From Mobula hypostoma (taxonomy: Eukaryota): 64,000 nucleotides of DNA. Position 1 is the stretch's first letter. Every line of letters begins with the position of its first letter. The position numbers and the translations under genes are program-made. The DNA lies in contig NC_086097.1 in the NCBI RefSeq assembly GCF_963921235.1, positions 169,386,001-169,450,000 on the forward strand. Reading direction: 5' to 3'. Under the pieces are notes generated by a model, which did not search any database, was not told the origin of the DNA, and saw only the letters and a list, made by a program, of their open reading frames with translations. Positions 9,935-59,759 of the stretch are shown one piece after another.

Positions 9935-10025
9935 TCTTCCTCTAGTTCAGATGAAACATCTTGACCTGAAATGTCAACTATACTCACCCTGTATAGATGC
10001 TGCATGATCTGCTGAGTTCCTCCAA
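9935..10025 (+). mobile_element. PLE terminus with degenerate hammerhead motif
   Basis: tagtt-cagatgaa...gaaatgtc-aacta, then tagatgctgcatgatctgctgagttcctcc as in other PLE termini. Confidence 0.6.
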
Positions 10026-10730
10026 AGTCTCCAAAGTTTTGGATGCCTACTTTTACTCACTTCAAAGATTAGGTGTCTTATGAATGCAGTCAAATCCCAT
10101 TTTGTCAAAGGTAGTATACAAATTCATGTCAGTAGGCTGAAGAGTCAGCAGATAATGCATTGAGTTCCTCAAACTACCTTGATTAAGATTATTTGATTTA
10201 ACTGACCATAGGTCTACTATTTTCCTTAATGAGGGCTTAAAACACAAAATCAAATATTAGATTTGTAGCTATGCCTTTGTTGCAGGGGGTGGCTTCACAA
10301 GTCGGGAACACTACTTATGGAAGGACGGGAAATGAAGAAATGCTCATACTATTTGGCTTGTAGACATTCTTCAGCAATCATTTTTCTGCTGATTCTGAAA
10401 TTTATAGAACTCTTCAAAAACAAAAAGGGCTCACTGCTAGTCTATTAATTACCTTCTTGAAGAGAACAGGTGAAATTTATCTTTGCTTATATATAGAACA
10501 GGACTAATTGACATCAATATATCTAGTTGCCCATATTTTCTCAATACATTTTGTACTAGTTTCAAATTAACAAGGGCTTTAATTATTTAATACTGGGACA
10601 ATGCTATTCAAATATTTACATATTGCAATGTGTCCGACAAGTAATTTTAGATATCCGTTTACTGTAGATATAGTGATCGTTTAACAACATATCATTTTAA
10701 AAAAAGCAACATCATCTTTAAAATACTTAC

Positions 10731-11607
10731 CAGCATCTCTCATCTGAAGTCCACCTGGCCAATGATCAAGCATGTCCATTCTTGAAGACTGATAACCAAC
10801 GGGTTGTGTTTGAAAATTAGAATCCAGTGGCATAGCATGTGTATTGTACAAATGAGCTGGGTTCTGCATCCTCATTTCTAATTTAGGATCATTATGAGTT
10901 CCAAAAGCTTGAATATTCCCCATGAATATGTTAGCACCTGGCAAACCACCTGGAAGGCTACATATATTGGATGACAAAGTGCTCCCCAAGTAACATGAAG
11001 TTAAAGGTACATTTAGGGAATTTGAACTGGTGGTCAAATTGCCCAGATATTGCTGGGCCAGTGGAGTTGTTAATAATGAATTTGCAGTAAGTAATGTAGG
11101 AACTCCAGGTATATCTGAAATAGCTTCATGTGGTTTAAAACTTGAAATAGGCATATATTTGCTCGTCATTCCAATGGTATTTATGGAGGCTGCATTCAAG
11201 GATTCTACACAAATCCTTTCATTCATCTTGGTCTTGAGAGGTGCACCAAAATTATCAGTTTGCTGGCGTGCAGGTGATCCTTTATACATGACTGACTTGC
11301 CTAACACTGATGGAGATGCATCGAATTGCTGCAATTTGATATTTTCAGATTGTGGAGAAGGTAACTTATTGGATTTTAATAAACTCTGTCTGTCTTCCTG
11401 TTTACTCACAGGGCTTCTGTTTTCATTGCTTTCCTGCTTATCATAACATGATTTTCTTAGTTGTGGACTAGAATTCAAAGAACCATTTGTACATCCATCC
11501 AACGAAGTTCGGAAAGTCATCTCACTTGTATTGACTATACTTTGATCTGGTGTTGTAGAGGGACTTGCTCGAATAATTGTTGTGCTTAATTCAACAATTT
11601 TATCATT
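10731..11607 (-). CDS. CEP192: CEP192 exon (NDKIVELSTTIIRASP...VPTLLTANSLLTTPLAQQYLG...QMRDA)
   Basis: Acceptor ctttcttccatag|AAT (phase 0), donor CTG|gtaagt (phase 1); 877 bp open. Confidence 0.95.
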
Positions 11608-13679: not shown

Positions 13680-14667
13680 TGCTCTCCTATCAGATTTCTT
13701 CTTCTCTAGCCCTTTACTTTTCCTATCCACGAAGTTTCACCTATCACCTTCTAGCTCAGCGGTCCCCAACCACTGGGCCGCGGACCGGTACCGGGCCATA
13801 AAGCATGTGCTACCGGGCCACGAGGAAATGATACGAGTCAGCTGCACCTTTTCCTCATTCCCTGTCACGCACTGTTGAACTTGAACACAGGATTGCCAAC
13901 TGTCCCGTATTTGCCAGGACATCCCGTATATTGGGCTAAATTGGTTTGTTCCATATGGGACCGCCCTTGTCCCGTATTTCCCCTGCTAAGGTAGAGTGTT
14001 CCTATGAAGTCGTTTGTGCCGAAATGGCTTAAAGCGCAGAAGCAATTACCATTAATTTATATGGGAAAAGTTTTTCAGCGTTCCCAGACCCAAAAAATAA
14101 CCTACAAAATCATGTCAAATAACACATAAAACCTAAAATAACACTAACGTACAGTAAAAGCAGGAATGATATGATAAATACACAGCCTATATAAAGTAGA
14201 AATAATGTATGTACAGTATAGTCGGGAAGATTAAGCCAAAACCGATTTGTGGGAAAAAAATCAGCATGTATGCGCATGCACACACAGGTGCTCACACAAG
14301 GCCTCATGGTCATGGTAGTCTTTCCTGGGGTAAACACAAGTGTCCCGGGATTTGACTGCTAATTTTGTCCCTTATTTGGGAGTGAGAAAGTTGGCAACCT
14401 TAACTGTAAAAGACATGTTGAGGTGAGTTTAACCCAACTTGAACCCCTCCCCCCCTACCCCGGTCAATATTAAACCGGTCCGCGGTGCATAATAGGTTGG
14501 GGACCCCTGTTCTAACTAGTCCTGCTTCCCCTCCCCCACCTTTTTATTCTAGCATTGCCCCGTCCTTTCCAGTCCTGAAGAGTCTCGGCCCAAAACATCA
14601 ACTGTTTATTCATTTCCATAGATGTGCCTGACCTGCTGAGTTCCTCCAGCTTTTTGTGTGTGTTGCA
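13680..14667 (+). mobile_element. PLE 3' terminus split by a hAT MITE
   Basis: Pyrimidine-rich tail, cagtcctgaagagtctcggcccaaaacatcaactg and gacctgctgagttcctccagc; continuous across 13757-14509. Confidence 0.7.
13757..14509. mobile_element. Non-autonomous hAT (Charlie-type) MITE with an internal second TIR pair at about 13889-14400
   Basis: TIRs CAGCGGTCCCCAACC / GGTTGGGGACCCCTG; 8-bp TSD TTCTAGCT / TTCTAACT; internal AGGATTGCCAACT / AGTTGGCAACCT. Confidence 0.88.
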
Positions 14668-15639
14668 TGAAACAAGGAATTTCAGCCAGGTACTCAACCA
14701 TGCAGAGTACAGTGAACAACCTAACCTGATCCTTATTCTTGGAGGCAGGACACATTGTACACAGAGGTGATTGCCATCAGAGTGGATCCCAATTCATCTG
14801 TGATTATCAGACTCAACTTAAGACCAGAAGTCAATTTGGACTCTGATCAGTTTGGTTTAATTCTACACCAGGTATTATCTAAGAAATCATTAAAATATAG
14901 ATATTTACCACAAAGAACATTAAATCATAAATTATTTCGCTCACAACCAACTTCAATTTTAATCCTAAATGCCACAATATTTCTATTTACTTTGCTGTTC
15001 ATAAAGACTCAAGAAATGAGATGATAACAAGATCAGTTTTGAATCCATGGCAGAGCGTTATATAGAATCTTGAAGGACTTTGACAAACTGAAAGAGCTAA
15101 TGGTCCATTACTACCGGTCAAGATGGCGCCAGCAAACAATGATTTCTCGGGCAAAATCTTCCAGACAGCTAATCTTTCCAATTATTTCACTTCTCCACCT
15201 TCTGCTTGTTCTTCTCATCTCATTTGTGTTATGGAAACTGTTGGAGCCTGAGAAGTAGTTTGGAACTCGATCGAAGAATCCACCACAATGCTGTGTCCGG
15301 ACAGCTGCCTCGTAGAGATCACACTCGGGAGGCGAAAAGGATTGAGGACACAAGCTGACTCATGGAATTGAGCAGAGACGAGGCACGGGGTTATGAGGCA
15401 TCGAGGTGAATGTGGCAGGGGTTCAGCAGCCTGACACATTCAGCCCTGGATTAGCAGTGTTCGGACCCATGTTTTTACTGAAGGACTGAGTTCGTGTGGC
15501 TGCTCTCATTGTACGCAGATGAAAAGTTTCCGATATTCTGAGATCTATGTGATTATTGAACCATACTTTTTATTGGTTTCCTTTAATTCTTTGTTTTCTT
15601 TCTTATGGCTGATTGGTGCTACTGTTGCAAGTGACAGGG

Positions 15640-16887: not shown

Positions 16888-17047
16888 CCATAGGACTTCC
16901 GGTAGCGCTCATGGAGTGAAGTCGCGTTCTTGACTCGCTCCATTACCTCTGAGTTTTTTTTTCTCTATGGTCAGCTACACTTTAATTAACCATTAAGGCA
17001 TCAATTTTTACAATACTTTGAATTAAACTGAATTCTCTGACAATTGG

Positions 17048-17947
17048 ATGATACTTAGATCTGCTATGTCTAAGAACGGGAAAAACGGCAAGGATGGTAA
17101 ACCTCCGGTTAAACCGAAAGCTACGGATCTCCCTCCGACTGAATCACCGGTGACTTTGAAAGCGATATCGGAGTTAATTCAGAGGGAAATTTCAACCTCT
17201 GTTAGGGAGATGATTCGTACGGAAATTGCAGGCTTTGTTAAAGACCTGATTCATACGGAAATCTCAACTAATTTCCAGAAAATTGCCGATTTAATTGATA
17301 AGATGCAAACATGTATTGCGGAACATCAGTCGGCTATATCTGATCTTCAAAAATTCGCGCAACAAAGTGAGCTTAAGATGGGGAAAATCGAAGAAACAAT
17401 TAATGTAATGAAGAAGAAACTTGACTTTTTGACTTTTAAAAACTCTGACTTGGAATCTAGAATGCGACGGCAGAATTTACGAATGATTGGCGTGAGGGAA
17501 GCCGTTGAAGCTAACAACCCCATGAAATATTTCTCTCAGCTTTTAAAAGATGCATTCCCTACTGTATTTCCTGACCAACCACCGCTACTGGATCGTGTTC
17601 ACAGAATCCCATCATACTCGTCTAGGTCAGATAGACCTAGGCATGTTATCTTACGTTTTCATTACTTTCAAGACAAGGAGAGACTGTTTCGATTCGCTCG
17701 ATCTAAAGGTTTCATTGATTTTTCGGATCTTAGGTTCCGATTCGTGGAAGATTTCAGTAAACCAATCTGGGACCAACGGGTCCGTTACAGATCCGTGATG
17801 TCGGAATTCTATAAGATGGATTTAAGACCAGCGCTGCTGTACCCTGCACGTCTAAGGATTCGCATGTTAGATGGAGCCCTTCGTTTTTTTGATTCTCCAT
17901 CGGATGTCCAGAGTTATCTGGATCAACTTTCATCTTCAACATCTTAA
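17048..17947 (+). CDS. L1 ORF1p (coiled coil, RRM, CTD), intact, 299 aa
   Basis: DLESRMRRQNLRMIGV, LDRVHRI, PRHVILRFHYFQDKE, EDFS, LLYPARLRI. Confidence 0.92.
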   Translation: MILRSAMSKNGKNGKDGKPPVKPKATDLPPTESPVTLKAISELIQREISTSVREMIRTEIAGFVKDLIHTEISTNFQKIADLIDKMQTCIAEHQSAISDLQKFAQQSELKMGKIEETINVMKKKLDFLTFKNSDLESRMRRQNLRMIGVREAVEANNPMKYFSQLLKDAFPTVFPDQPPLLDRVHRIPSYSSRSDRPRHVILRFHYFQDKERLFRFARSKGFIDFSDLRFRFVEDFSKPIWDQRVRYRSVMSEFYKMDLRPALLYPARLRIRMLDGALRFFDSPSDVQSYLDQLSSSTS

Positions 17948-18669
17948 TTGCCTTTTTTTTAATTTTCTCCGTTGATCGGAGGCTGTGAATTGGTTGGTTT
18001 TAACTTTTCTGTGCCCTATTTGGGCAGAAAAGTTTACTTTTGATTTCTTAATATGGCTGCTAAACTTTCTTTTTAACTGCGTCATTTCTTTCTTTTCCCA
18101 GGGGATTCTGGGTGGTTACTTCCCTTTTGTCATCTTACGTATTTCCTGTGCGGCCTTAAATTTTGTAGTTTTTTTTTAAATTTTATTCTGTTTTGCTTTT
18201 TATAATCACTTTATGTTAATAATCCTATTTTTTTTTGTTGCTGTGTCTATTCATGAGTTTGAGGTTTATTGTGGTTTTTTTCAATATATATTTTCCGGCT
18301 TTTGTTCTGTTCTGTGTGTATTCTAATTGAGCTAACTTTTTTTTACTTATTTTTTTACTGTTTTACAATTAGCTGATCCTTTTCATATTTATACCTTTTT
18401 TTTAGGGAGCGTATACCGGAAGTCATGGGGGTAGTTTTAGCGCTTGCTTCTTTCTGGCGGGTCTGCTTTAGATTTTGCCTTGGGGTCTTGGGGTGGCGGG
18501 TGGTGGGAGGGGCTTCACGTTTTAGTTTGTTTTTCTTTGGGCTATATACATTATTGAAGTACTGGTTGCGTCCTTTTCCCCGGTATCTTTTGTATGTTCT
18601 GTTTCCTCTCCGGGTTTGTGGGTCGCGCCTATTGTCAATCCTCCTTGTTGTGGGTTGACTTTAGGATTT

Positions 18670-21600
18670 ATGGAGTCTATTATTAATTTTGTCTCCTGGA
18701 ATACTAATGGTCTTAATCATCCTATTAAAAGAAAAAAAGTTTTTAAAGTGTTCCGGAGACTTAAAGCACAAATTTTATTTTTACAAGAGACCCATGTACG
18801 GAGGGGGGACAGACTACGTTTTTTCAAATTCTGGAAGGGTCAACAATTTCATTCGAACTCCAATGCTAAGATTCGAGGCGTCTCTATTTTTATAGATTCC
18901 TCAGTTACTTTTATACAACAGGATATTATCTCTGATCCGAATGGTAAATTTTTATTGGTTAGTGGTTTACTATTTAATAAAAAAAGTAGTTTTGGTTAAT
19001 GTTTATGCTCCTAATATGGATTGTCCGGAATTTTATAAATCATTGTTTGATCAGTTTCCGAATTTGAACGAGTTTTCATTGATTTGGGGCGGAGATCTTA
19101 ATACCTGTTTATCTCCAGCTTTGGACCGTTCGGCTCCTTTACGGACTTTACCTAATAAATCTGCAAATTTGATTAATTTTTTCCTTTCTGATTCTGGGTC
19201 GACGGACATTTGGCGTTTTCTGCATCCTCAGGAAAAAGATTTTTCCTTTTTTTCACATGTTCATCATTCCTATTCAAGAATTGATTATTTTTTTATTGAT
19301 TCTCGTCTCATTCCTTCAGTGATTAAATGTGATTATGATTCTATAACCATTTCGGATCATGCTCCACTTAAGCTTTCTATTAAAATTATGGCCAATATAC
19401 CAAACAATAGACAATGGCGTTTTAATTCGCTGTTGCTTCAGGACTCGGATTTTGTTAATTTTATGAATGATCAGATTGAGCTTTTTTTTACAATTAACCA
19501 TACAGAAGATATTTCGGTTAACACTCTTTGGGACACTTTTAAAGCCTATATTCGGGGTCAGATTATTTCGTATTCCGTTGCTTTGAGGAAGAAACAGAAG
19601 CAGGAGGAGATGGCAATTGTGGACAAGATTAAAGAAATTGATAAGAAATATGTTATGGCTCCTTCTGAGGAGCTATACAAACAAAGAACTGAACTTCAAA
19701 TGGAACACAGTTTACTACTCTCGTCCTCGATTGTAAACCAATTAAAGAAAACAAGAAGTGATTTTTATGTTCACAGTGATAAAATTGGCAAGCTGCTGGC
19801 TAATCAATTGAAATCTAATTATGTTAAATCTCAAATCAATCAGATTTATAACCAAAATGATCGATTGATATTGAATCATGTGGGGATTAATCAAACCTTT
19901 TGTGATTTTTATTCTTCTTTATATCAATCAGAGTCTCCTCGAGATTCTAAATATATGAATGATTTTTTAGATAAGTTAGACTTCCCTCAGATTTCACAGG
20001 ATATGTCTTCTTTATTAGATACTTCCATTACAATGGATGAGATTAAGAATGTTATTTTTTCTATGAATCTGGGGAAAGCTCCTGGCCCTGATGGGTTTAC
20101 CGTTGAATTTTATAAATGTTTTGCTTCTTTATTGATTCCTTGGCTCTATAAGGTTTTTGAGGCTTCTTTGAAACTTGGTAAACTTCCGGAATCTTTTAAT
20201 AGAGCATCAATTTCTTTAATACTAAAGAAGGATAAAGACCCTGCTCAATGTGCATCTTATAGACCAATATCTTTATTAAATGTTGATTCTAAAGTTTTTT
20301 CTAAGTTATTAGCAAATAGACTAGAAAAAGTACTTCCTTCTATTATTTCGGAAGACCAAACGGGTTTTATTAAAGGTCGTTACTCTTTTTATAATATTCG
20401 TACATTGTTAAATATCGTTTATACTCCCTCACAAAATGTTCCTGAGTCTGTTATTTCTTTAGATGCCGAGAAAGCTTTTGATAGAGTAGAATGGCCTTAT
20501 TTATTTAAGGTGCTTGAAATGTTTAATTTTAGCTTGAAATTTATATCCTGGATTAAACTGTTATATCACTCCCCTGTAGCCTCGGTTCGTACTAACTCTT
20601 TAAACTCACCTTTTTTTCCTCTCTTTCGTGGTACTCGACAAGGCTGTCCTCTTAGTCCCCTATTATTTGATATTGCATTAGAACCTCTTGCAATTGCTAT
20701 TCGAGAATCTTCAAATATTACTGGGATAACTCGGGGATTAAAGTCCCATAAATTATCACTCTATGCTGATGATTTACTTTTATATATTTCTAATCCTGAG
20801 AGATCTATTCCTGCTGTTTTAGAGTTATTAGCACAATTTGGTCTTTTCTCAGGTTATAAATTAAATCTTAGTAAGAGTGAACTTTTTCCGATTAATAAAC
20901 ATCTTCCCTTATATTATAAATTTCCATTTAAATTGATTAATAATTACCTTTCATATCTTGGGATTAAAATTACTTGTAAACATAAAGATTTATTTAAGAC
21001 TAACTTTTTACCATTAATAGACCATATTACTCAACTTTCATCTAAATGGTTTCCCTTATATTTAACTTTGATTGGTCGTATTAATGCAGTTAAGATGTTT
21101 TTTTTGCCAAAATTTTTATATGTGTTTCAGGCATTACCAATTTTCGTTCCTAAATCTTTTTTTGATAAAGTCGACTCTAAAATTTCTTCATTTATTTGGC
21201 AGAATAAGAATCCGAGACTGGGTAAAATACATTTACAGAAAGCTAAGAGAGATGGAGGTTTAGCATTACCTAACTTTAGATTTTATTATTGGGCTATTAA
21301 TATTCGACATATGAAATTTTGGTTACTTGACCGGGATATACTATCTATTCCTAAATGGGTAGCATTGGAATTACAATCTGTTCAGGGTTATACACTTGGT
21401 TCTATTTTAGGTTCATCTCTTCCTTTTGATTCGAAACGCCTTAAGCAGGTCTCTAACCCGATCGTTAAATATGCTTTGCGTATTTGGTTTCAATTCAGAA
21501 AATTTTTTGATCTCAATCAATTCGGGTTAGCGATTCCTATTTTAGGTAACATATTTTTTCCTCCCTCTTTTACGGATCGCGCTTTTCAAACTTGGAAGAC

Positions 21601-21754
21601 TAAGGGTATTTTACGGTTTTTGGATTTATTTTTAGATGGTTCCCTTATGTCTTTTGAACAATTATCTAATAAATATAACTTATCAAGAATACATTTTTTT
21701 AGATATTTACAAGTTAGAAATTTCCTAAGTACTATACTTTCTTCCTTTCCAATG
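18670..21754 (+). pseudogene. L1 ORF2p, endonuclease plus RT; one +1 frameshift in the A7 run at 18979-18985; truncated by the inversion
   Basis: SWNTNGL, LQETH, NVYAPN, GGDLN, SRIDYF, SDHAP; APGPDG, YRPISLLNVD, LDAEKAFD, RQGCPLSP, YADD. Confidence 0.92.
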
Positions 21755-21995
21755 TTTTTTTTCCAGCGAGTGACTGGGTCAGGAACTGTTAAGTGTCACT
21801 TTTTTTATGTCAGCGATGGGATCAAGGATTATTATTGTCCCTGTCATTTTTCTTACTGTTCGGCGAGCATTTTTGGGGTCAGCAAGTTCTGTTTCTTTTC
21901 TTTTCCATGCCGGGGGGGGTGGGGGTTGTTGATGTCCTTTATTTCATCAACACCCAAGGTTTTTCTGTATTTAATAGCTATCTATAGTATATAAA

Positions 21996-23033
21996 CTAGA
22001 TAGCAGGGTGACCCGTTGGGGTACCCTTTAAGAGAAGGGTAGTGCAGCCTGATATGACCAGAATGAACATTAAATTTTCCTGAATGCTATTGGTATCGCT
22101 TTGCTTTGGAAACTGAAGTAGAAAACCTCAGTTTATTAAAAAAGGACACGTAGCAAAGGAAATATAGCTGCTCCTCATTTAAAGAAGGACACTTTTGATG
22201 GCATCATTTCTGGCTTATCTGCCACCCTTGTGCCTCTCGTTGTCATTCTGGAGACATGCAGTCCTTTCATCCCCCATCTCTTCAGCTGTTTGTTATTTGT
22301 CTCTGATCCTGGAGACGTGCATGCCTCTCCTCCGCCTCTTCTTCTCTCATCTTTTTTTGCCCTGACTCTTTGATCCTGGAGTCGTGCAGCCCTGGCCTCA
22401 TCCGATCCTTGTTCTCTCCCTCTCCTTGCCGCTTCCCGACAACGTTTGGCGTCATCTCTTGACCACGGCCCCCTTCCCTTTCCTCGCGACATAATTAGGC
22501 TGACCAATTTTTTCTTTACCCTAATGCTGGATAGAAGATACGAAGCAGTAACACCAAAGGATGCTGATTATTCTTGATGATGTGGTTGGTGCTCTCCTAA
22601 ATGGATGTAATATAATCACCGCTGTCCTTTGACTGCAGCAAAGGGTTTGATGGCTGTCTCGAAGTACGTCATTACAATAAGATCTTTTATTGATGGGTGG
22701 CAGTTAAATCTGTCCCAATCCAGCACATGCTGATGGTGATTAGCAGAATGTGACCCCTCGAAATAGAGCTGCCCTGCCCTTTTGCTCTAGTAGGTGTCAC
22801 CGCTGAGGCTGGCCACGCACATGCGTCGGGCTGTCGCGTCCCGATTTCTATGATGGCAGATTGGCTCTTGGGTTAAAAGGGAGCCTGTTGATTTTGGCGA
22901 ATGAGTAATTTTATACGAATATATAACCCTGAACTTTGCCTGCATTCTGTAAGTGCCGCTGTAATGCACTGTTTGTGCTAATTGGAGGTCACAAACTGAC
23001 AGACAGAGCATGTGAGTTTTAGTAGTATATAGA
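21996..23033 (-). mobile_element. Non-autonomous Helitron, 1038 bp
   Basis: On minus: A|TCTATATA start; hairpin GGGTACCC-caac-GGGT(C)ACCC; CTAG|T end; no TSD; relic of RepHel-like N-terminal repeats (EARAARLQDQR). Confidence 0.88.
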
Positions 23034-23450
23034 TATCGAGTTGTATTGTACATTCATACTTTGACAATGAAGTGAACCTTTACTGACAAAATTACCCAAG
23101 CCTGACTGGATTGTTATGCTACTAAATATGATTTTTTTTTTGGACAAGAACTTGAAGAAGTTTCAATATAATAGCCAAATGTGAATAATTGATGACAAGT
23201 TATACCAAATAGTTATTTAGGAGGCAGAACAAAGGGGCAACAACTGAATAAGATTCCACCTTCAAATGAAAGAAGCAGAGTCATACTGCTCAACTATGTA
23301 GCCAACGTGAAGCCCAAGTAATTCAGAATCCGCCTGTAATTATGTGCATGATTCAGGGTTATGAGGAGCATTCAATTCATAAAATGAACCAAAGACTTTT
23401 GTTCTTAACTATAGTTCTTTGTAAATCATTCAGAGAAAGACTACATGAAC

Positions 23451-23600
23451 CACAAACAAGAGAAAAATCTGCAGACGCTGGAAGTCCAAAGCAATACACA
23501 CAAAATGCCAGAGAAACTCAGGCCAGGCAGCATCTGTGGAAAAGAGTAAACAGTCGATGTTTCAAGCCAAGACCCTTCATTAAGGTCGAGTCCTGATGAA
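23451..23600 (-). mobile_element. Short PLE terminus with degenerate hammerhead, plus a small inverted stub
   Basis: Minus: ...atgaagggtcttggcttgaaacatcgactg...gatgctgcctggcctgag; plus stub gagtcctgatgaa. Confidence 0.7.
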
Positions 23601-24058
23601 AGACTGTTTGAATATTATTGCACAGCAGCCTTTTTCAATCCATGAACTGATTTATGAAGTATCAAGTTATTAAAATCTAACCACCTGAATGAAATTAAAA
23701 TATACTTAACGTTTATTTCAGACATTAAGCTACAGTACAACATTTCTTCTTGGTACAATTGCCATCTGAAGATTAAAAAGGGTCCCATGGTAATTCCTTA
23801 AATGGCTTCAACTACACAATGACTAGGAATCTCATTACTAGATTGCTGCCCCAGCATTCTGCTACCATTTCAACATAAAAATTGACATAGCCAACAACTG
23901 ACTTCAACTGCTGTTCACAGGCATTTTGTTAAACAAATATTTTCTAATATACTATTCAATAGAATTGCATATAAGAAATGGGAAAATGAATGAAATATTT
24001 ATTTGATAGGAAAGTATATTTCTAAAATAAAAAATATAGAACAAAAGGATTTCTTTAC

Positions 24059-24158
24059 CTGGTAGCAGTTGGTAGCTCTGTGACTTTGGTTGGTGAAGAA
24101 TGAATCAATGGAGAAGTTGATGGCCTCAAACTTAGCTGATTTGTAACAGGTACACGCT
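24059..24158 (-). CDS. CEP192: CEP192 exon (ERVPVTNQLSLRPSTSPLIHSSPTKVTELPTAT)
   Basis: Acceptor ctttcaatatag|AG (phase 1), donor CAG|gtaaag (phase 2); 100 bp; conserved RPSTSPLxHSSP. Confidence 0.92.
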
Positions 24159-24411
24159 CTATATTGAAAGATATATGTGCTGAAAATTATGCATATTAAT
24201 GTTTCAGGTACAGCACTAAGCAACATTGTTAAGTGTAATATGACACCAAAAGTGCCACGATCTTTTAGATAGCTTTTTAAAGTTTTTTTCCCCCTGATCA
24301 TTAATTACACCAGAATTAAAACAAATTTTATTCAGCCAACTTCTGTCATAAAAAAGTCTTGAAAGTAAATTGGAAAATAATAAGAACTAACTATAAGAGC
24401 TGCTACAAGTA

Positions 24412-25839
24412 CAGTGCCTATAAAAAGTATACACCCCCCCGCCAAACTAATCAACTGCATAAGTATTCACTCCATTTAATATGACATGCCAAATCGTCAC
24501 TAGTGCAGCCAACTGGTTTTAGAGATCATATAATTAGTTAAATGGCGATCACCTGTGTGCAGTCAAGGTATTTTAATTGATTGTAGTAAAAATACACCTG
24601 TGTCTGGCAGGTCTAACTGCTGGTGAATCAACATCCTGGCAAAAACTACACCATGAAGACAAAAGAGCACTTCAGCAACTCAACAAAAAGATCATTGAAA
24701 AGCACAAGTCAGGAGATGGATATGAGAAAATTTCCAAGTCCCTAAATATCCCTTGGAGTACTGTTAAGTCAATCATCAAGAAATGGAATGAATATGACAG
24801 CTGTAAATCTGCCTAGAGCAGGCCGTTCTCAAAAGCTGAGTGACCATGGAAGAAGGGGACTACTAAGGGAAGCTACCAAGAGACCTATGACAACTCTGGA
24901 GGAGTTACAAGCTTCAGTGGCTGAGATGGGAGAGACTGTGCAAACAACAACGGTTGCCCAGGTGCTTCACCAGTTGCAGAGTGGCAAAGAAAAAAACCAC
25001 TGATTAAAAAAAACATGAAATCTCAGCTAGTTTGCCAGAAGGCATGTAGGAAACTCTGGAGTCAGCTGGAAGAAGATTCTATGACTTGAAGAAACCAAAA
25101 TTGAGCTTTTTGGCCATCAGACTAAACACTATGTTTGGCGTAAGCCAAACACCGCATGTCATCAGAAACACACCATCCCTACTGTGAAGCACGGTGGTGC
25201 TGCATCATGCTGCGGGATGCTTCACTACAGTAGGCCCCGGAAGGCTTGTGAAGGTAGAGGGTAAAATAAATGCAGCAAAATACAGAGAAATCTTGGAGGA
25301 AAATCTGATGCAGTCTGCAGGAGAACTGCGACTTGCGAGATTTGTTTTCCAGCAATGACTCCAAGCATAAAGCTGAAGGCTTAGGAATGGCTTAGAAAAC
25401 AACAAAGTTAATGTCCTGGAGTGTCCAAATTGGAGTCCAGACCTCAATCTAATTAAGAATTTGTGGCTGGACTTGTTCACTCATGATCCCCATGCAATCT
25501 GACTGAGCTTGAGCAGTTTTGTAAAGAAGAATGGGGGAAAATTGCAGTGTCCAGATCTGCTAATCTGATAGAAGCCTATCGACACAGACACATTTGCTGC
25601 CGAAGGTGCATCCACTGAATACTGACTTAAAGGGGGTAAATAATTGTGCAATTAATTATAGTGATTTAATAATTCTAATAAATTTAGACCAACTTGTAGG
25701 AATTTGTTTTCACTTTGACATGAAAGTATTTTTTCTATTGAACAATGCTAATAAAGCCAAATTAAATCCACTGTGATTCAATGTTGTAAAACAAAGCATG
25801 AAAACGTTCAAGGAGTGTGAAATCTTTTTATAGGCAGTG
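24412..25839 (+). mobile_element. Tc1 transposon (IR/DR type) with degraded transposase
   Basis: TA|CAGTGCCTATAAAAAG start and matching end ...TTTTATAGGCAGTG|TA; HKSGDGYEKISKSLNIPWSTVKSIIKKW; SPDLNLIKNLW. Confidence 0.92.
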
Positions 25840-25971
25840 TATATTAAAAGAGAAGAACTAAAGTAAACATTGATATATTTAAGTAATAATAGAAAATGGA
25901 GAAATGGCAGATACATTTTGGATCAGTCTTCATAGTGAAAATCACTTAAAAGCATACTGTTATTTTAGTAA

Positions 25972-26131
25972 CACAAACACGTGAAAATCTGCAGATGCTG
26001 TAAATCCAAAGGTAACAAAAAATGCTGGAGGAACTTGACATCTCTGGAAAAGAGCAAATAGTTGACTTTTTGGGCCAAGGCTCTTCATCAGGATCAAGAC
26101 ATCAACCAATTGTTCTTTTCCACAGATGCTG
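25972..26131 (-). mobile_element. Short fold-back PLE terminus with degenerate hammerhead
   Basis: Minus: tcctgatgaagagccttggcccaaaaagtcaac; followed by an inverted copy ...ttttccacagatgctg. Confidence 0.65.
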
Positions 26132-26154
26132 AAAACAAAATACTGGACTTGAAA

Positions 26155-26520
26155 ACTAAGAAGTCCCTGAGACTTGATGACCTACATCCTTAGTCTTGAT
26201 GGAAGTAGTTACAGAGAAAATGTGCGAATTAGTTGTAAATCTATCAAAATTTCCAGGGATTTGGCAAACTACAAATATAACAACACTATCCAAGGAAGGA
26301 GATAGAAAATATAGACCAGTTAGCTTAAGACTGGGAAAATGCTGCAATCCTTTAATTGAAATAGCAGGACATTTAAAAGCATAAGTCAAACAAACAGAGT
26401 TGACAGTTTTATGGACAGGTTAATATGCTTGACAAATTTGCTAGAGTTCATTTATGATCCAAGAAATGATGAACAAGGGTAACAAGATGATATAGTGTAT
26501 TTGTATTTTCAGAATGTATG
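26155..26520 (+). mobile_element. Old CR1 RT fragment
   Basis: KYRPVSL and LTNLLEF remnants. Confidence 0.65.
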
Positions 26521-26651
26521 ACCTCCAGTAAGACAGTACTGTTAAGTGGTGACTCTGCTGGCAGCTCCAATGGGAATCATCGAATACCATGGCTATGACT
26601 ACCACCACTGAAATCAAGTCGTAGCCATGGTAAGCAGCACTGTTTTAAGAT

Positions 26652-26837
26652 CGCAAACACGAGGAAATCTGCAGATGCTGAAAATTCAAGCAACACACAC
26701 AAAATGCTGATGGAACGCAGCAGACCAGACAGCATCCATAGGAAGAAGCATCCCTGGCCTGACGAAGGGTTTCGGCTCGAAACGTCAACTGTGATGCTGT
26801 CTGGCCTGCTACGTTCCACCAGCATTTCATGTGTGTC
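26652..26837. mobile_element. 186-bp fold-back PLE-derived mini-element with hammerhead core
   Basis: 15-bp TSD GCACTGTTTTAAGAT (26637-26651, 26838-26852); about 47-bp inverted arms; CTGACGA-AGGGTTTCGGCTC-GAAACGTC at 26759-26786. Confidence 0.85.
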
Positions 26838-26989
26838 GCACTGTTTTAAGATGTTTTTATTTTTAAACCTATTGATGCTCAACATCAACAAAACCCAGAT
26901 GACAGACTTGGGTTGCAAGTGCTTTTCCCCTTTAAGAAAAAGGAAGTGGAGATACTGTGCCAGTCTACAGGTACGACTGAAACACAAGA

Positions 26990-28295
26990 GTCCTGTGACT
27001 TCTACTCCTGACAATCCTGATGGTGAACGTACAGTCCTTGGAAAATAAAACTGAAGACCTCAGAGCAAGACTGCATTACCAGAGGACATCAGGGACTGCT
27101 GTCTACTCTGCTTTATAGAAACATGTTTGACGGCTTGTGGAACCAGAGGAGTGAACACACTTGACAACTGTTATACCACCATCAAGAACACTTACTGTGC
27201 CATTCCACACCTACACCTTGTAAAGTCCAATCACCTGGCTGTACTTCCACTCACAGTGCATAGAAAGGGACTAAAGACCGCAGCACCAGTGGTGAGGTAG
27301 GTGGAAGAGCACTTACAGGACAGTTTAGACTCAGTGGACTAGACAATATTCAAGGATTCATTTTCAAGTCAGAATGAATACACCAGTTGTCACCGACTTC
27401 ATCAAGACCAGTGTGGGTGAGTATGTGCTTTTGAGAAATACCGATCATACCCAAACCAATAGCCATGGATGAAACAGGTGATTTGCAGTCTGCCAAGGGC
27501 TAGACCCGGAACATTCAAGACCGGTGATCCAGAACTATACAAAGGTGCCCAGGTACAACCTTCATAAGGCTACTTTAAGGGCGAGAAAACAATTTTGATT
27601 GAGGTTAGAGACTGAATCAGATGCACATCATCTCTGGCAGGGTTTGCAGGCCATTTCTTCCTACAATGTGAAACCTAACATGAAGAATAGCTGTGATGCT
27701 TCACTTGCAGAAGAGCTCAACCTGATCAGCCTTTAATGCACGCTTTGAAAGAATAAAACTGCACCTGTGTGAATCCCTTCAGCATCTGGTGACCCGATGA
27801 TCGGTGTCTCGGAGCAAACATCAGAACATCTTTCAAAAGCGTGAACCCTCGCAAAGCATTAGGCTTTAATGGTGTGTCTGGGAGGCCTCTGAAAACCTGT
27901 GCCAAACTACTGGTGTGAATGTTCAAGGACATCTTCAATCCATCACTGCTGCAATTGGAGGTTTCAACGGACTTCAAAAGGGTGACAATCATATCAGTGC
28001 CCAAGAAAAACGGTGAGCTGCCTCAACAACTATCACCCAGTGACAATTACATCTACTGTGATTGAAGTGCTTTAAGCAGTTGGTTGTGGCTAGATGGTCA
28101 GAACACCACCATCAGATTTCTGAATTGACAATCAATTCATAAACACTACCTATTTTTTCCTCTTTTTGCACTACTTAGTTAATATATTATATACTTCTCA
28201 TTGTAATTTATTGTTTTTACTATGTATTGCACTGCACTGCTACCGCAAAACTGCAAATTTCATGACATACGCTGGTGATGTTAAACCTGATTTTG
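26990..28295 (+). mobile_element. Rex1/Babar-like LINE, degraded, with internal deletions
   Basis: YPNQxPWM, DASLAEELN, VFKDIFN, CLNNYHPV remnants; 3' UTR ending aaacctgatt. Confidence 0.75.
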
Positions 28296-28674
28296 AAAGG
28301 GCATTTGATTAGGTGCCACTTGGAAGGTAATTGCACAAGATCTGATCACACAGAGGCTTGGATATTATATTGCCATAGTTAAGAGACTAGCTGACTTACA
28401 TCAATGTTGGGGTATCCTTGGATTGGCAAACAGTAATTAGTGCATTACTACGAGCATCAGTGATGGGGTCCTAAGTATTGGTTGTGTTCCAGTTGGCTCT
28501 ATATTTCATTTAAATACATAATTTGTTACTCAATTTGTCTTTTTTATACCTCTTTAGCTATTTGTACAGCTGCTTAAGTGGGCCAAAATATACTGGCAGT
28601 GATGTGTCCTGATTAACTGGAATCCACTGTATTCAAGGCAGAGATGGAAACTAGAGAGGAGTCAAGGTATTAGA

Positions 28675-29606
28675 TACAGAAAATACTGGAAAATCTCTGT
28701 AGATCTGGCAGCATATTTGGGCAAGAGGGGGCAGATGAGAGAAAACAAATTGAGTTTAAGTTTCAGAAGGTCAGGGAGACAGCAAAGGAATACCTCTGAT
28801 CGGGCAAGGCATGGTTGCTGTGAGGTTAATTTGAGGAGGTCATCAAATTCTCTCCAGTTAGAGAGAATACTGAGAAAGAAACATGACAAATCTGAACTGC
28901 AGGACTGTACAACATGCCTTACTAGTCAGGCTGTACCGATAGAGAAAGAAAAGTTGAACCAATATAACTTTAAGGAGAAGTGGCCAATGAAACAGTCCGA
29001 AGTTACAGAATATGATATGGGGTCCAGGTGATTCCAGTTACTCCGATGGATGATGAGGTTCTGTGCCTCAAGTTTACATTAGTTAGAGTTACAAACAGAT
29101 AGATCAAAATGGGAATGAATGGAGAGCTAAAATGGCAGGGCACAGGAAGCTAAAGGAAGCTGTGAAGACTGAATGTAATTGAGTCAACAAACCAGTCAAA
29201 CAATCTTTGTTTGATTTCTCCAATATACAGGGGGTCATGTTGCGAACACAAATGGAAAACACAAGATTGGAAGTTATGCACATGATTCACTGCATCACAG
29301 GAAGAATGATTTGGCCACCTGGATGGTGGGAAGGGAAGAGGTAAAAGGACAAATGTGGCACAGGCTACAATTGCAAGGGAAGTGCCTTAAGGGAAGCTGG
29401 TGGCAGCAAAACAAAAACAGAAGGGAGCGATTCCTTTGAAATGCGGAAAGGGGTGATGTATTTGGTTGTGAGATTTTGTTGATATTGGCATAAATTGAAA
29501 AGGATAATACACTGATCTGTCTTCTTACAGGGATGCAATCCTGTCTGCTCAGCGCTTCCAGCATTTTCTGCTTTTATTACAGATTTATCGCATCTGCAGT
29601 CTTTCT
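28675..29606 (-). mobile_element. Old PLE (GIY-YIG remnant) with an inverted terminus at about 29530-29606
   Basis: Minus-strand LYIGEIKQR remnant near 29200-29230; PLE terminal sequences in opposite orientations at the two ends. Confidence 0.65.
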
Positions 29607-29941
29607 TTGATTTTTCAAGGAAAATACAGGAATGGAAAATTGAGAGTGAAAACAGGAAATCAGGATAGAGGCCAAATCTGGATCAACCATAATAATACTA
29701 AACATTGGTGCAGGTTTGAAAAACCATTGCCAAATCCTCCATCCGTTTCTAATGCAAAAGTTGTCCCTCTAATAAAAATCATGCATTCTGATTGCACACA
29801 CTCCACTTAATGAGAAATTATTGCAGTTCCTAAATAATCACGACTTCACAGCAGGTTCCCTTCGACATGGTTTCCAAATACATTGGTCATAATGGTCAAT
29901 ATCAGAAATGAAGTTTAATGCACGACATATTAAAAGCTCAC

Positions 29942-31085
29942 CAGATTTACAGATTTTTGGTGTAGCTGGAGTGCAGTTGGATTGCTCAGGGCTGATGCTC
30001 TTTTGTTGGTCGCCAAGATCTGGAATTTCTTGCACATTTCTTTCCAAGTGTGGCTTAAAAGTTTTAAGTATTGCTGTATTGTCTTTATATATTGTCTCAC
30101 TTGTTGATTCCGCAAATCTTTGCTCCACAGATTCACTTGGGCAATGCTTGGAACTACTTGTTGTTACACCTTGAACAGCAGAGGGTTGAGAAGTAATAAT
30201 CCCTTCAGTTACATTTTGTAATGTTCTGGACACGCTCCCAGATATCCTTTCTGAGGTCTGCTCTTCAATGACTTGCTTCATTTGTTCTCCATTTTCAGGT
30301 TTTGTTCTATGTGCAGTTTTATCCAAACTTGATTCATTTCTCCTTAAACAAATATTATTCTTTTTGACTTGTTTCACTGCATTTATGGCTGTGTCATTCA
30401 TGGATGGTATTTCATGGGCTTCATCAAAACTTGAAAAAAGCGTACTATCACATGAACTTCCACTTACCACTGAATTGCCAATCAACTTACTATTATGTAT
30501 GGGCCCAGATGGTTTTTCAGTCTTAAGTACACAGGCTTCATTTTTGTGCTCATTCTGACCACAAAACCCAACTTCATCTTCAACTGATCTCTGTGAATTA
30601 CCTATTTCAACAACGTTTAGTTTCTGCATCTTCTCTTTTGAGTGTACTGTTTTCCTCTTTTCCTGCTTTTTGGTGCTATTTTTGATGAATTCCACTGAAA
30701 ATGAATTTGACATACTTTGAGGATTCCTCAAACTTTCAGATAAATCAGTGGAACTTAAATTATAAACAGATTCAGACAAAGGCTTGAATTCAGATTTGAG
30801 AATCTCACTCGTACTGCCCTCTGAGTTTTCAGGCTTTTTCTCCACATCAATAGCATTGCTTTTCTGGCTCTTCACTTCTGCACTGAATTCTTTACCAGTT
30901 GCCGCAGGCATATTTTTCTTCCTGTTTTTATTAGAAAGCTCCAAAATCATAGATGCCAACTGAGCAGGATCTGCACTTACAGAAGCATCAGCTATAGCAG
31001 AAGCAATTGTACTTATGCTCAAGACTGAATCTGTGGTGTTCAGTTTAGTTTCTTCAACCTTCGGATTCAAACTCAATCGTGTATT
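29942..31085 (-). CDS. CEP192: CEP192 large exon (NTRLSLNPK...SISTIASAIADASVSADPAQLASMILELSNK...PKICKS)
   Basis: Acceptor tttctttctttag|AAT (phase 0), donor CTG|gtgagc (phase 1); 1144 bp open. Confidence 0.95.
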
Positions 31086-31502
31086 CTAAAGAAAGAAAGT
31101 AAACAGTTCTCAGATATATTTCCAATGCAATTTGAACTAAATAATATTCTCTGAAAGCTATACCACTACACAATCTATCCACACTCTGCATCAAACACAT
31201 CATAGCACACCTGTGACAGAACCTGCAAGTTTTAGATTGGCCTCTGCACACCCCTTGGAACCCACAGACCAAAACATCAACAATTCCTTTCCCCCCCACA
31301 CCTCCCTATAGATGCTGCTTGACCTGCTGAGTTCACCTAGCAGATTATTTGTGAACTGGTGGAACCAACTCATCCACAATCCCATACAGATTAAAGTTTT
31401 CACTGGAGGTCGTTACACCGAGGATACTGGAAGACAGAAGGGGGCGGGGGGGCGACGATGAGCAAGGAAAGGATGCTTTAAGTACAGGAGACCCCGGGGG
31501 AT

Positions 31503-41827: not shown

Positions 41828-41956
41828 ATCGCTCTTCATGATTCACCCAATATATCTGGCATTATTCGTGGGAATGGGACGCATAAGGTATCACTATATG
41901 CAGATGACCTGTTACTATATATCGCTAACTCAGAGAAATCCATCCCTGCAGTAATA

Positions 41957-42881
41957 CGCAACACACATAAAAGTTGCTGGTGAATGCAGCAGGCCAGGCA
42001 GCATCTCTAGGAAGAGGTACAGTCGACGTTTCGGGCCGAGACCCTTCGTCAGGACGAACTGAAGAAGAGCTGGTAAGAGATTTGGAAGTGGGAGGGGGAG
42101 ATCCAAAATGATAGGAGAAGACAGGAGGGGGAGGGATGGAGCCAAGAGCTGGACAGCTGATTGGCAAAAGGGATATGAGAGGATCATGGGACGGGAGGCC
42201 GAGGGAGAAACAAAAGCGACCCTTCGCCTGTGAGTCGGCTGGGGTGATATACTGCGTCCGGTGCTCCCGATGCGGCCTTCTATATATTGGCGAGACCCGA
42301 CGCAGACTGGGAGACCGCTTTGCTGAACACCTACGCTCTGTCCGCCAGAGAAAGCAGGATCTCCCAGTGGCCATACATTTTAATTCCACATCCCATTCCG
42401 ATGTGTCTATCCACAGCCTCCTCTACTGTAAAGATGAAGCCACACTCAGGTTAGAGGAACACCACCTTATATTCTGTCTGGGTAGCCTCCAACCTGATGG
42501 CATGAACACTGATTTCTCTAACTTCTGTTAATGCCACACCTCCCCCTCGTACCCATCTGTTATTGCCCATCCTCTGGGCTCCCCCCCCCTTCTTTCTCCC
42601 AGACCTCCTGTCCCATGATCCTCTCATATCCCTTTTGCCAATCACCTGTCCAGCTCTTGGCTCCATCCCTCCCCCTCCTGTCTTCTCCTATCATTTTGGA
42701 TCTCCCCATCCCCCTCCCACTTCCAACTCTCTTACCAGCTCTTCTTTCAGTTTGTCCTGACAAAGGGTCTCCGCCCAAAACATCGACTGTACCTCTTCCT
42801 ATAGATGTTGCCTGGCCTGCTGCGTTCACCAGCAACTTTTGTGTGTTGCTTGAAATTCCAGCATCTGCAGATTTCCTCCTG
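41957..42881 (+). mobile_element. 5'-truncated PLE (GIY-YIG C-terminus plus pLTR) with an inverted pLTR at about 41957-42215
   Basis: 12-bp TSD CCTGCAGTAATA (41945-41956, 42882-42893); GVIYCVRCSRCGLLYIGETRRRLGDRFAEH...RLEE...QPDGMN. Confidence 0.93.
42020..42061 (-). ncRNA. Minimal type I hammerhead ribozyme motif, intact core, in a PLE pLTR
   Basis: Minus: cagttcGTC-CTGACGA-A-GGGT-CTCG-GCCC-GAA-ACGT-C-GACtg; stem I GUC/GAC, 4-bp stem II, palindromic ACGU in place of helix III. Confidence 0.72.
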
Positions 42882-44919
42882 CCTGCAGTAATATGACTTT
42901 TCTGGTTATAAATTGAATCTTAATAAGAGTGTGCTTTTACCATTAAATATGCAAGTTCCAATCTATAGACAATCACCATTTAGACTGGTTACCGATTATT
43001 TTACTTATTTGGGTGTTAAAGTTACTAAGAAGCACAAGGATCTATTTAAAGCTAACTTTTTACCCTTAATTGATCATGTTAAACAACTGCCTACTAAAGA
43101 GTCCCCATTGTCCTTATCATTGATTGGTTGAATTAATGCTATTAAGATGATTATTTTACCTAAATTTCTGAATCTATTTCAGACAGTACTAATCTTCATC
43201 TCTCAATCCTTTTTTGATACTATTGATTCTAAAATTTCTTCATACATATGGCAGAATAAAAATCCTAGGTTAAGTAAGAAATACTTACAGAAATCAATAA
43301 AGTATGGCAGTTTGGCATTGCTGAACTTTAGATTCTATTATTGGGCAATTAATATCCAATATCTAACATTCTGGACACAAGATTTGGATGAAATTCAATG
43401 TTCACGATGGGCGAACCTCGAGTGCGAGTCTGTACAGGGGTTCTCATTGGCTTCTGTTTTAGGGGGTTCGCTTCCCTTTGCACTTACTAAACTGAATAAA
43501 CAAAACGATTAATCCAAAAACTAAACATACAATACGAATATGGTTTCAATTTCGTAAATTTTTTGGATTGAATAAATTTATCCTATCAAGTCCAATTATA
43601 TCCAATTTTTTCTTCCAACCATCCAGGACTGATCAAGCTTTTATTTTAAAATGGAAAAGGAAGGGATGTTTTCGTGATTTATTTATGGATAATTGTCTCA
43701 TGACTTTTGAAGTTGTCCAATAAATATAATTTGCCTAGATCACATTTTTTCAGGTATTTACAGATCAGAAACTTTTTGAATGTTATTTTACCTACTTTTC
43801 CGATACTGCATCAAACTGAAATTACAGAAAAAAATTTAGGTTTAAACGCCTATCAGAAGAGTTTAATTAGCAATTATTTATGATTTATTTACAAAAATAC
43901 GTCTAGGTACATCTGATAAAATTAAGAATATCTGATAAAATTAAGAATGAATGGGAAAGAGAACTTCAGGTATCTTTACCTATAGAGAAATGGGAGAAAA
44001 TTCTCCAACTAGTTAACACCTCTTCAATGTGTGCTGGACATGCTTTGATACAATTTAAGGTGGTTCATAGGGCCCATATATCTAAGGATAAGTTAGCTCG
44101 TTTTTATTGCCATATAAATCCTATCTGTGACAGATGTAATTCTGAGGTAGCTTCCTTGACACATATGTTCTGGTCTTGCCCTCTTTTGGAAAAATATTGG
44201 AAAGATATTTTTGATATTATTTCATTAGTTCTGCGTCTTGATTTACAACCTCATCCTATCACTACAATTTTTGGATTACCAATGATGGACTCTAGTCATT
44301 TATCCCCTTCAGCTTGCCCTTTGATTGCATTTGTTACATTAACAACCAGCAGATCCATTTTATTTAAATGGAAAGATTCTAATCCCCCTACTACATTTCA
44401 ATGGTTTTCCCAAACCGTAACATGTTTAAGTTAGGAGGGGTACTATCCATCCTCTTCAGTTAAATTTGAAGAAACTTGGAGGCCATTTATTCAACATTTT
44501 CATATGATGTAAGCTGACCTTTTCCGAATCCTTTTCAATAACTTTTTTGTATGGAGGAGCGGAGTTAATGACAAATAATGATTTTAACCGATGAAACATG
44601 GCTGCCAGCCTTTGTTTTGTTGTGTTTTGGTTTTTTTTTTGCTGTTGTTTTTTAAAGTGTAAGGGGACTTTACTTTGTAAAAATTTTTTTGAATCTTTTT
44701 CATGTTCAGTTATTAAGAGATTGGGAGGCTTAAATTAAATTACATATATTACTCTGAGTCTGTGTCTGTATACGTTAACCGTTATTAATGTAATCCCGAT
44801 CTCTTTGTATCATTATCGTTATGTTTATCAATTCAAAACTTAATAAAAAAGATTGAAAAAGAAAAAGAGAAATAAAACTAGAATTAATGGCGATTGTAGC
44901 AGTTGAATATGGAACTAAC

Positions 44920-58528: not shown

Positions 58529-59095
58529 TCTTTTACTTTAAAGGGAGTTTGAAAGGAGCATGAATAGAGTTTTAAGAAACTCTTTTGATGCCAAGGGTAA
58601 ATGAAGTGTCCTCTGGTTGAATATAGCATTTCTCAGTAATCTGTAATAGGACTTCTGCTTTGCATCCAATGTATAAAATTATTCCTTTGCGTAATACATA
58701 AAAGAACATTAACTGTCAGTATGCAATTAACAAATAGGAGCCATGAAGTTCAGAAGATAGAGCCAGAAAACTACACATGAGCACATACATGATAAAACTG
58801 TAAGGCTAGAAGCCAAAAAGATTAATATATAAAAATTATTAAAAGCTGGAGCATACTTATATGTGCCATTTAAAAACTGTGGTACCAGCTACAGGCAAAA
58901 TGTGTTTTTACTACATCATCCTCCAAATGCAACATTCACAGACCAAAAACTTTGAGGTGGTTAGGGTAAATCTGTCAGAATATTGTCAGCTACAAACATA
59001 ATTTTATCTATAGCAAAAAGCACAGAAGAATAAACAAACAACTGGCAGCTACAGTTGAGGCCACATTCTCTGGAAACAACAATTGCAATTAATAC

Positions 59096-59492
59096 CTTTG
59101 CTATTATGTGTTTGGGAGCATCCAGTGCTGTATTCAGCTTTCTGCTGGTTGAGAAATAAGTTACTTTTTGAGGAATCTTGCCACATCCCTTCTGTGCTTT
59201 CATCTGGATACACAGGGGATAAGTAAACAGCTGCCAGAGGTGGGCCTGAAACTCCAGTCAAGGTCTGGTCAGCATCATCACTTTCTGTAACATTTGTCTG
59301 TTCTACTGCTGCACCCCCACAAGGTCCATCTCTAAGACCCAAGCTGTTGTCACAACTTGGTGAGCAGATGATCTGTGATACATGAAGTGGTGTGGAAAGT
59401 GACTGGTCAGGTGCGGTAGTATTACCACCGCCAGAACAAAAATATACAGAATCCAGCTTCATTCCATCATTCAAACCAGAATCAAGAGTATC
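59096..59492 (-). CDS. CEP192: CEP192 exon (DTLDSGLNDGMKLDSVYF...SQTHNSK)
   Basis: Acceptor tgtgttctacag|GAT (phase 0), donor AAAG|gtatta (phase 1); 397 bp open. Confidence 0.88.
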
Positions 59493-59759
59493 CTGTAGAA
59501 CACAATAGATAGCTGTTATTGGTACAAGATAAATATTTGAATCATAATTAAATTATGAAATGCCAAATATCCCAGACCTTGCAGCAAATAAGACAATCAA
59601 TTGGACACACTAAAGACTTCCTAACTCTAAAGAGCAAAATCAAGGTTACCGCAATGTTACTTCATTGATCAAAATCATGTTTACCATCACTGGCATACAT
59701 CATGAAATTATTTTTTTTTGCACCAGAACTACAGTGTAATACATAGAAAACTATAACAA

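Follow-up and report, generated by a model that had tools for sequence, protein, structure and literature searches.

The 64,000-nt window analysed here, the whole stretch taken from contig NC_086097.1 of Mobula hypostoma, carries at 26637-26852 a short insertion of 186 bp (26652-26837) bracketed by two copies of GCACTGTTTTAAGAT. This TSD is exactly 15 bp long, is not extendable and has no further occurrence on either strand within the window. Exact 15-mer direct-repeat pairs spaced 60-1200 bp apart were found five times in the 64 kb, and only the GCACTGTTTTAAGAT pair flanks an insert; the remaining four belong to a G-rich repeat (two) and to the shared PLE tail (two). The insert consists of two 5′-truncated PLE repeat ends arranged head to head, with a 38-bp tail at one end only. 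Its parts, and a larger insertion used as comparator, are as follows.

26637..26651, plus strand: left TSD copy, exact repeat of 26838-26852; a contig of organism E joins the left flank to 26838 onward.
26652..26689, minus strand: 38-bp PLE tail, present at this end only, aligning with that of the larger insertion (about 42850-42881).
26690..26748, minus strand: left arm, the pLTR end in antisense orientation; it may reach 26750, and family contigs align up to 26746-26748.
26749..26757, no strand: inversion junction, 7-9 nt of filler between the left arm and the sense pLTR piece.
26758..26792, plus strand: minimal type I hammerhead remnant with helix I lost, from the motif scan.
26793..26837, plus strand: right arm, the pLTR end in sense orientation and tail-less, from the inverted-pair search and alignment.
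26838..26852, plus strand: right TSD copy, exact repeat of 26637-26651.
41945..42893, no strand: comparator, a larger, separate head-to-head insertion of the same PLE family and layout (0.9 kb).

The inverted arms (26690-26736 and 26793-26839) are 47 nt long and 87% complementary, which makes them the longest among 26 inverted pairs in 22000-29000, and the final 2 nt of the right arm are at the same time the initial 2 nt of the TSD. Both 3′ ends of the insert point outward, and the truncated 5′ ends meet centrally. The RNA fold of the insert was computed at −80.2 kcal/mol (z −7.95), and 0 of 200 shuffles were equally stable. Aligned with the pLTR-end repeat at 42794-42881, the insert showed 86.5% identity over 89 nt, tail included. 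The left arm is truncated a few bases before the ribozyme cleavage site, and the sense pLTR piece begins precisely at the ribozyme core (26758). At the junction itself, overlapping 7- and 8-nt words that recur within the element (26731/26747 and 26754/26801) are suggestive of templated end joining, though chance could also reach them. Thirteen nucleotides are absent between 26792 and 26793, a stretch that the left arm retains at 26737-26749; none of the 9 other window segments in the alignment has this deletion. The lost 13 nt formed the innermost stretch of the original palindrome, which makes it likely that they were removed later in a hairpin-related event. Outside the insertion, a 16-bp inverted repeat (94%, 16-nt loop) at 26585-26632 stops 4 bp short of the left TSD.

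The hammerhead motif comprises the core at 26759-26765, an extra A at 26766, helix II at 26767-26778, GAAA at 26779-26782, an ACGT palindrome at 26782-26785 and C17 at 26786. Conserved core, extra base 9/10.1, helix II and palindromic helix III, as expected of a PLE minimal hammerhead, are thus present at 26759-26786. The usual helix I of 4-5 bp is missing: filler replaces its 5′ strand, and the base after C17 is A, versus G in the intact copy. That copy (about 42019-42060, minus strand) keeps its helix I partners and cofolds via ACGT, whereas the copy at 26759-26786 does not. Rfam gave no match at E ≤ 1 across the whole window, so the ribozyme call at 26759-26786 rests on the published features of minimal HHRs, namely an additional base following position 9, the G10.1-C11.1 pair and a 15.2-16.2 palindrome that lacks loop III (PMC4209133). 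All of these it has in common with the PLE minimal type I HHR; it differs in the missing helix I and in a helix II of 4 bp with two G-U pairs, and is a remnant. The same source describes single minimal-HHR motifs as inactive and dimers as weak, and places minimal HHRs mostly as single motifs in truncated PLEs, with opposite-strand dual motifs 100-700 bp apart also noted (PMC4209133). In the one reconstituted PLE, ribozyme mutants are reported to be without effect on in vitro insertion (PMC11167929). In our reading, the hammerhead at 26759-26786 is a pLTR passenger that the truncation point has separated from helix I, and with helix I absent the 26652-26837 copy could not excise a unit-length RNA.

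Much of this anatomy had been described in an earlier note on the same DNA. Its perfect 15-bp TSD around a 186-bp insert, its imperfect inverted arms of about 47 bp and its hammerhead core in the loop with a broken stem I (core 26759-26786) were all borne out. Its inverted PLE termini hold for the arms, but the one-sided tail at 26652-26689 had been missed and the left-arm homology runs on to about 26748-26750. The note saw no ORF, which is correct for the insert as such, but on the minus strand the tail-bearing arm can be read without a stop from an ATG, within frame 26577-27059. This putative coding start fits the description of pLTR and tail as encoding the first ORF residues (PMC3846280). 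Similar termini had been indicated at 25972-26131 and 23451-23600, and these turned out to be only partly alike: the former has a 34-nt inner inverted pair and a junction unlike 26749-26757, the latter combines a tail arm with about 13 nt of ribozyme in sense orientation and lacks an outer inverted arm, and the TSD search at both places gave only matches of 5-8 bp (the best being 6 and 8 bp), none convincing.

The comparator at 41945-42893 has a 12-bp TSD (41945/42882) and arms of about 260 bp that are 90.9% identical over 263 nt, with the tail on the right end only. Its junction, near 42214-42222, adjoins endonuclease coding and differs from the junction at 26749-26757. A hammerhead is found in each arm, of which the minus-strand one near 42019-42060 looks intact. 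Both insertions show what is expected of EN+ PLEs, that is, an inverted 5′-truncated copy with a one-sided tail of 30-40 bp (38 bp, left only, in the small insertion; the mirror case in the comparator) and a TSD of variable length (15 and 12 bp), with a matching empty site for the TSD at 26637-26852. Further material of the same group includes a 5′-truncated PLE of a related subfamily at 48884-50010, with RT thumb/linker and cysteine finger, an interrupted endonuclease and a pLTR that bears a degenerate hammerhead and no tail, and decayed pLTR-end fragments at 9940-10035, 14560-14672, 31255-31353 and 29557-29605.

No intact PLE ORF was found within the 64-kb window. In the comparator, the stretch 42223-42528 encodes a GIY-YIG C terminus (Pfam PF01541, E 3.8e-5, above cutoff); the pLTR lies downstream of it and the homologues carry RT motifs, which links the pLTR to RT and GIY-YIG coding. 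The best 5 of 41 protein matches to the comparator endonuclease came from Mobula and Hypanus, with 74-88% identity, and by these names the host is probably a ray. The top match, P0001, has an RT YIDD motif, a CxxxxCxxC-type linker finger and a GIY-YIG domain. The zinc finger in the RT-EN linker reads CKRNKCYTC in P0001 and P0002 and CNRRKCYTC in P0007, and the window fragment 48884-49333 carries a CKRKCYTC finger. According to 10.1101/2021.04.23.441226, such a finger marks the Neptune and Nematis clades. By this motif, the inserted family likely belongs to the Neptune clade, with Nematis sharing the same finger.

Several other features surround the insertion. Long non-repeat frames on the minus strand (10681-11607, 29838-31085 and 59049-59552) may be exons of one host gene, in which case the PLE insertion would be intronic and antisense; a search for the identity of that putative host gene gave a best Atlas score of 0.80 and Pfam matches for 0 of 4. 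An element of about 1.4 kb with 30-bp terminal inverted repeats lies at 24410-25841, which we take to be a decayed Tc1/mariner transposon, as we take 53188-54032 to be another Tc1-like frame. On the plus strand, 17027-21994 contains one frame of 306 aa and one of 1032 aa, presumably a near-intact L1-like LINE with an ORF1-like protein (306 aa) and an endonuclease/RT (1032 aa), to judge from motifs.

Related genomes were compared by aligning 4 of 24 contig-form runs (X1, X5, X13 and X15, i.e., organisms A, B, D and E) to 26475-27014 at 80% likeness; the contigs aligned numbered 27,291, 25,904, 16,978 and 29,561, respectively. The site is filled in A (X1 record 1, 26475-26672, 0 differences) and in B (X5 record 24, 26475-26679, 3 differences). 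It is empty in E: in X15 record 17, a contig of 772 nt, positions 397-541 correspond to 26475-26619 and, 14 letters further on, positions 556-731 to 26838-27014, an empty site with a single duplication copy. Since a contig of one relative carries the empty site, the 186-bp insert is a true insertion. In D the site is probably empty too, as the alignment of X13 record 9 breaks off at 26636 and leaves 58 of its letters unplaced. Divergence in the flanks was 3/205 to B, 14/303 to D and 31/322 to E. The two arms differ from each other at 6 of 45 positions, all transitions, and the probability of at least five mismatches between them was 0.059 at the distance of D and 0.43 at that of E. The arms are thus somewhat more diverged than expected if the insertion postdates the split from D, which counts somewhat against the reading as a single insertion; CpG decay or two different RNAs could account for the excess. 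The insertion is a presence/absence marker among related species.

The earlier note had asked whether many copies share the inversion junction, and contig alignment took the place of BLAST here. Summed depth at the junction base 26749 was 16, 24.2, 14 and 14 (X1, X5, X13 and X15), compared with 7.39, 11.1, 4.6 and 9.1 on the unique flank; at 26752 it was 112.1, 67, 34.6 and 62, and in the bins of the tail and left arm (26655-26744) it ran from about 65,000 to 4.6 million. Summed contig depth is not a copy number, and rare variants drop out of contigs. Members of a junction-sharing family would be aligned over the junction at 80% likeness and raise the depth by orders of magnitude, so depth near that of the flank argues against such a family. 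To the extent that contigs reveal it, the junction is close to single-copy in each of the four runs, and a few siblings may exist. The 15 inner joints listed, of 83, are all different and occur in 1-3 contigs per run each; nine of these 15 leave the left arm or the tail and resume in the loop or the right arm, and among those listed the joint 26709 to 26793 recurs in three of the four runs. A single contig of X1 (depth 9.28) has a seemingly near-identical junction, in which the base at 26749 is changed and the sequence at 26752 is shorter by 6 nt, when its depth-9.28 entries for the two positions are taken as one record. It may represent a second locus, and the junction would then not be strictly unique.

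The outer ends behave differently from the inner junctions, for this PLE end is present in tens of thousands of contigs per run with outer ends fixed and inner junctions variable. At 26653-26655, contigs stop by the hundreds, with unrelated A-rich flanks beyond (564 + 378 in X1; agreement 0.38-0.39), and further ends, likewise against unrelated A-rich flanks, lie at 26665 (hundreds) and 26689 (202 in X13). That the family ends at three clusters (26653-26655, 26665 and 26689), not two, hints at a third RT start site or a subfamily with a shorter tail. An opposite-strand joint from 26654 to 26691, between tail end and tail-less end, was seen in 4 of 4 runs (2-3 contigs each), possibly a tail-to-tail arrangement or an old shared locus. 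In X15, 280 contigs bear the 13-nt stretch missing from the insertion as a loose end before 26793. The tail motif was also met at 14 loci in metagenome contigs, all 14 matching only over the 19-23 nt of the motif, and these were dropped as chance. Pattern scans of viral contigs, of metagenome contigs for the junction and of prokaryote genomes gave 0 matches, which is no evidence, as these collections are unlikely to hold ray DNA.

We consider it very probable that 26637-26852 is a single dead insertion made by a Neptune-type PLE through staggered double nicking, two-ended priming, early stops and head-to-head joining. Most likely, the GIY-YIG endonuclease would have introduced one nick into each strand of an AT-rich site, 15 bp from each other, and each free 3′ end would have primed reverse transcription on PLE RNA. 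The tail-bearing arm would then reflect priming from a distal start site, which we place at the tail (26652-26689), and the tail-less arm priming from a proximal one. Both cDNAs would have halted after about 80-100 nt and been joined head to head via a short filler, gap fill-in would have produced the 15-bp TSD, and the 13-nt deletion and point changes would have arisen later. The two-ended priming, the mode of joining and the timing of the deletion are what we infer in this scheme. Both arms have a T at 26729/26800 that none of the 7 other aligned segments spanning this position within the window shows, and from this private T it follows that the arms come from one source copy. Two-ended priming also has a parallel outside PLEs: in L1 twin priming, both nicked target strands prime reverse transcription, leading to an inversion within one TSD. 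In L1 twin priming the two parts copied from the one RNA are different, whereas the 26652-26837 insert contains the same stretch twice. For PLEs, the Poseidon protein of the anole is reported to cut and extend both target strands, favouring DNA that is AT-rich, to be a predicted dimer, and to begin reverse transcription at two sites delimiting the tail (Frangieh et al., PMC11167929). Our model of two-ended priming is borrowed by analogy from this Poseidon-clade biochemistry, a different clade from the family at 26637-26852, and may be said to fit it.

The contig data bear on the idea that the 186-nt hairpin, once joined, is transcribed in its own right and inserted anew by PLE enzymes, as a small non-autonomous fold-back lineage of which a few siblings share the junction. 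With the RT start region at both ends of the hairpin, a joined fold-back could be copied as a unit, and both non-autonomous PLEs (PMC9977147) and pLTR-derived retrozymes (10.64898/2026.07.22.740005) are described. The X1 contig with its near-identical junction would be a sibling, the junction is about 1.5-3 times deeper than the flank, including in the organism with the empty site, and a few further joints are common to several runs (26709 to 26793, in three of the four). Yet junction depth remains thousands to hundreds of thousands of times under that of the arm and tail bins, the 13-nt deletion is private (0 of 9 other segments), 23000-28000 contains no tandem array, and the loss of helix I deprives this copy of any unit-length RNA; recurrent joints across related species can also be orthologous old insertions or microhomology hot spots. 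We regard such a lineage as unlikely; if true, it would be a ribozyme-independent, inverted-repeat class of non-autonomous PLEs, distinct from tandem retrozymes. Within the reach of contig data, the same observations do not support the earlier note's proposal of a non-autonomous retrozyme-like family and match the outcome that the note had named as refuting it, differing junctions among the copies; they agree with its other option, an extreme 5′-truncated inverted PLE insertion, to which PLE homology, one-sided tail and empty site all point.

One priming event could also have sufficed, if self-priming or a template switch on one template gave a pre-formed palindrome that was then integrated; this would change the mechanism and not the classification. 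Its attraction lies in the private T of both arms, which indicates one source copy, in the short words from within the element that the junction repeats, and in the argument for self-priming from palindromic junctions made in PMC3846280. A single source copy is equally compatible with two RNAs of one locus on a dimeric enzyme, however, the junction at 26749-26757 lacks a perfect palindrome, and the outer ends match two of the family's end clusters (26653-26655 and about 26689-26690), as expected for separate RT starts, so that we find a single priming event decidedly unlikely. Highly improbable, finally, is a MITE-like DNA transposon or the chance pairing of two separate insertions. Short length, non-coding character and inverted repeats with a TSD would suit it, but the inverted arm is set in by 38 bp from the left end instead of being terminal, the family's TSDs differ in length (15 and 12 bp), the arms consist of PLE pLTR sequence in continuity with GIY-YIG coding, and the empty site lacks both arms together.

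The single two-ended insertion thus preferred is of a kind known from other PLEs. For canonical PLEs, an inverted 5′-truncated copy with a tail of 30-40 bp, usually on one end, is reported (10.1101/2021.04.23.441226; PMC8969392), and for rotifer PLEs inverted pLTRs in head-to-head orientation, a 31-bp tail and TSDs of 8-10 bp (PMC3846280). In Chlamydomonas, new PLE insertions are given a median length of 128 bp (PMC9977147). Descriptions of the head-to-head layout in PLEs exist (Arkhipova 2013; Craig 2021), and two-ended priming (Frangieh 2024) is compatible with it. By title and abstract we found no description of this ray PLE family or of a fold-back non-autonomous PLE class; the family may be catalogued in repeat collections (Repbase, Dfam), which lay outside this search.

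Animal retrozymes, in contrast, are portrayed as head-to-tail tandem units with complete ribozymes (PMC7229834; 10.64898/2026.07.22.740005). The insertion resembles animal non-LTR retrozymes in being non-coding, with a type I hammerhead, in its relation to pLTRs and in the proposed movement by PLE enzymes. It differs from their tandem arrangement with a working ribozyme per unit by its inverted pair, one broken ribozyme and near-unique junction. Head-to-tail units, each with a complete type I HHR, were sought in 23000-28000 with 0 tandem arrays found, and a multi-copy family with one unit structure is contradicted by junction depth near that of the flank in 4 of 4 runs and by the differing joints among those listed. 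With the inverted-pLTR insertions of EN+ PLEs (PMC3846280; 10.1101/2021.04.23.441226) it shares the inverted 5′-truncated copy, the tail at one end, the variable TSD, the hammerhead in the pLTR and the tail and pLTR end open from an ATG; here, however, both arms are <100 bp without coding body, and the TSD is 15 bp versus 8-10 bp in rotifers. Because this layout has already been described for PLEs, the insertion at 26637-26852 is real but ordinary: a cleanly bounded, dead PLE insertion of known layout. As one dead insertion the locus alone matters little, and the wider population of PLE ends to which it belongs is the more useful object.
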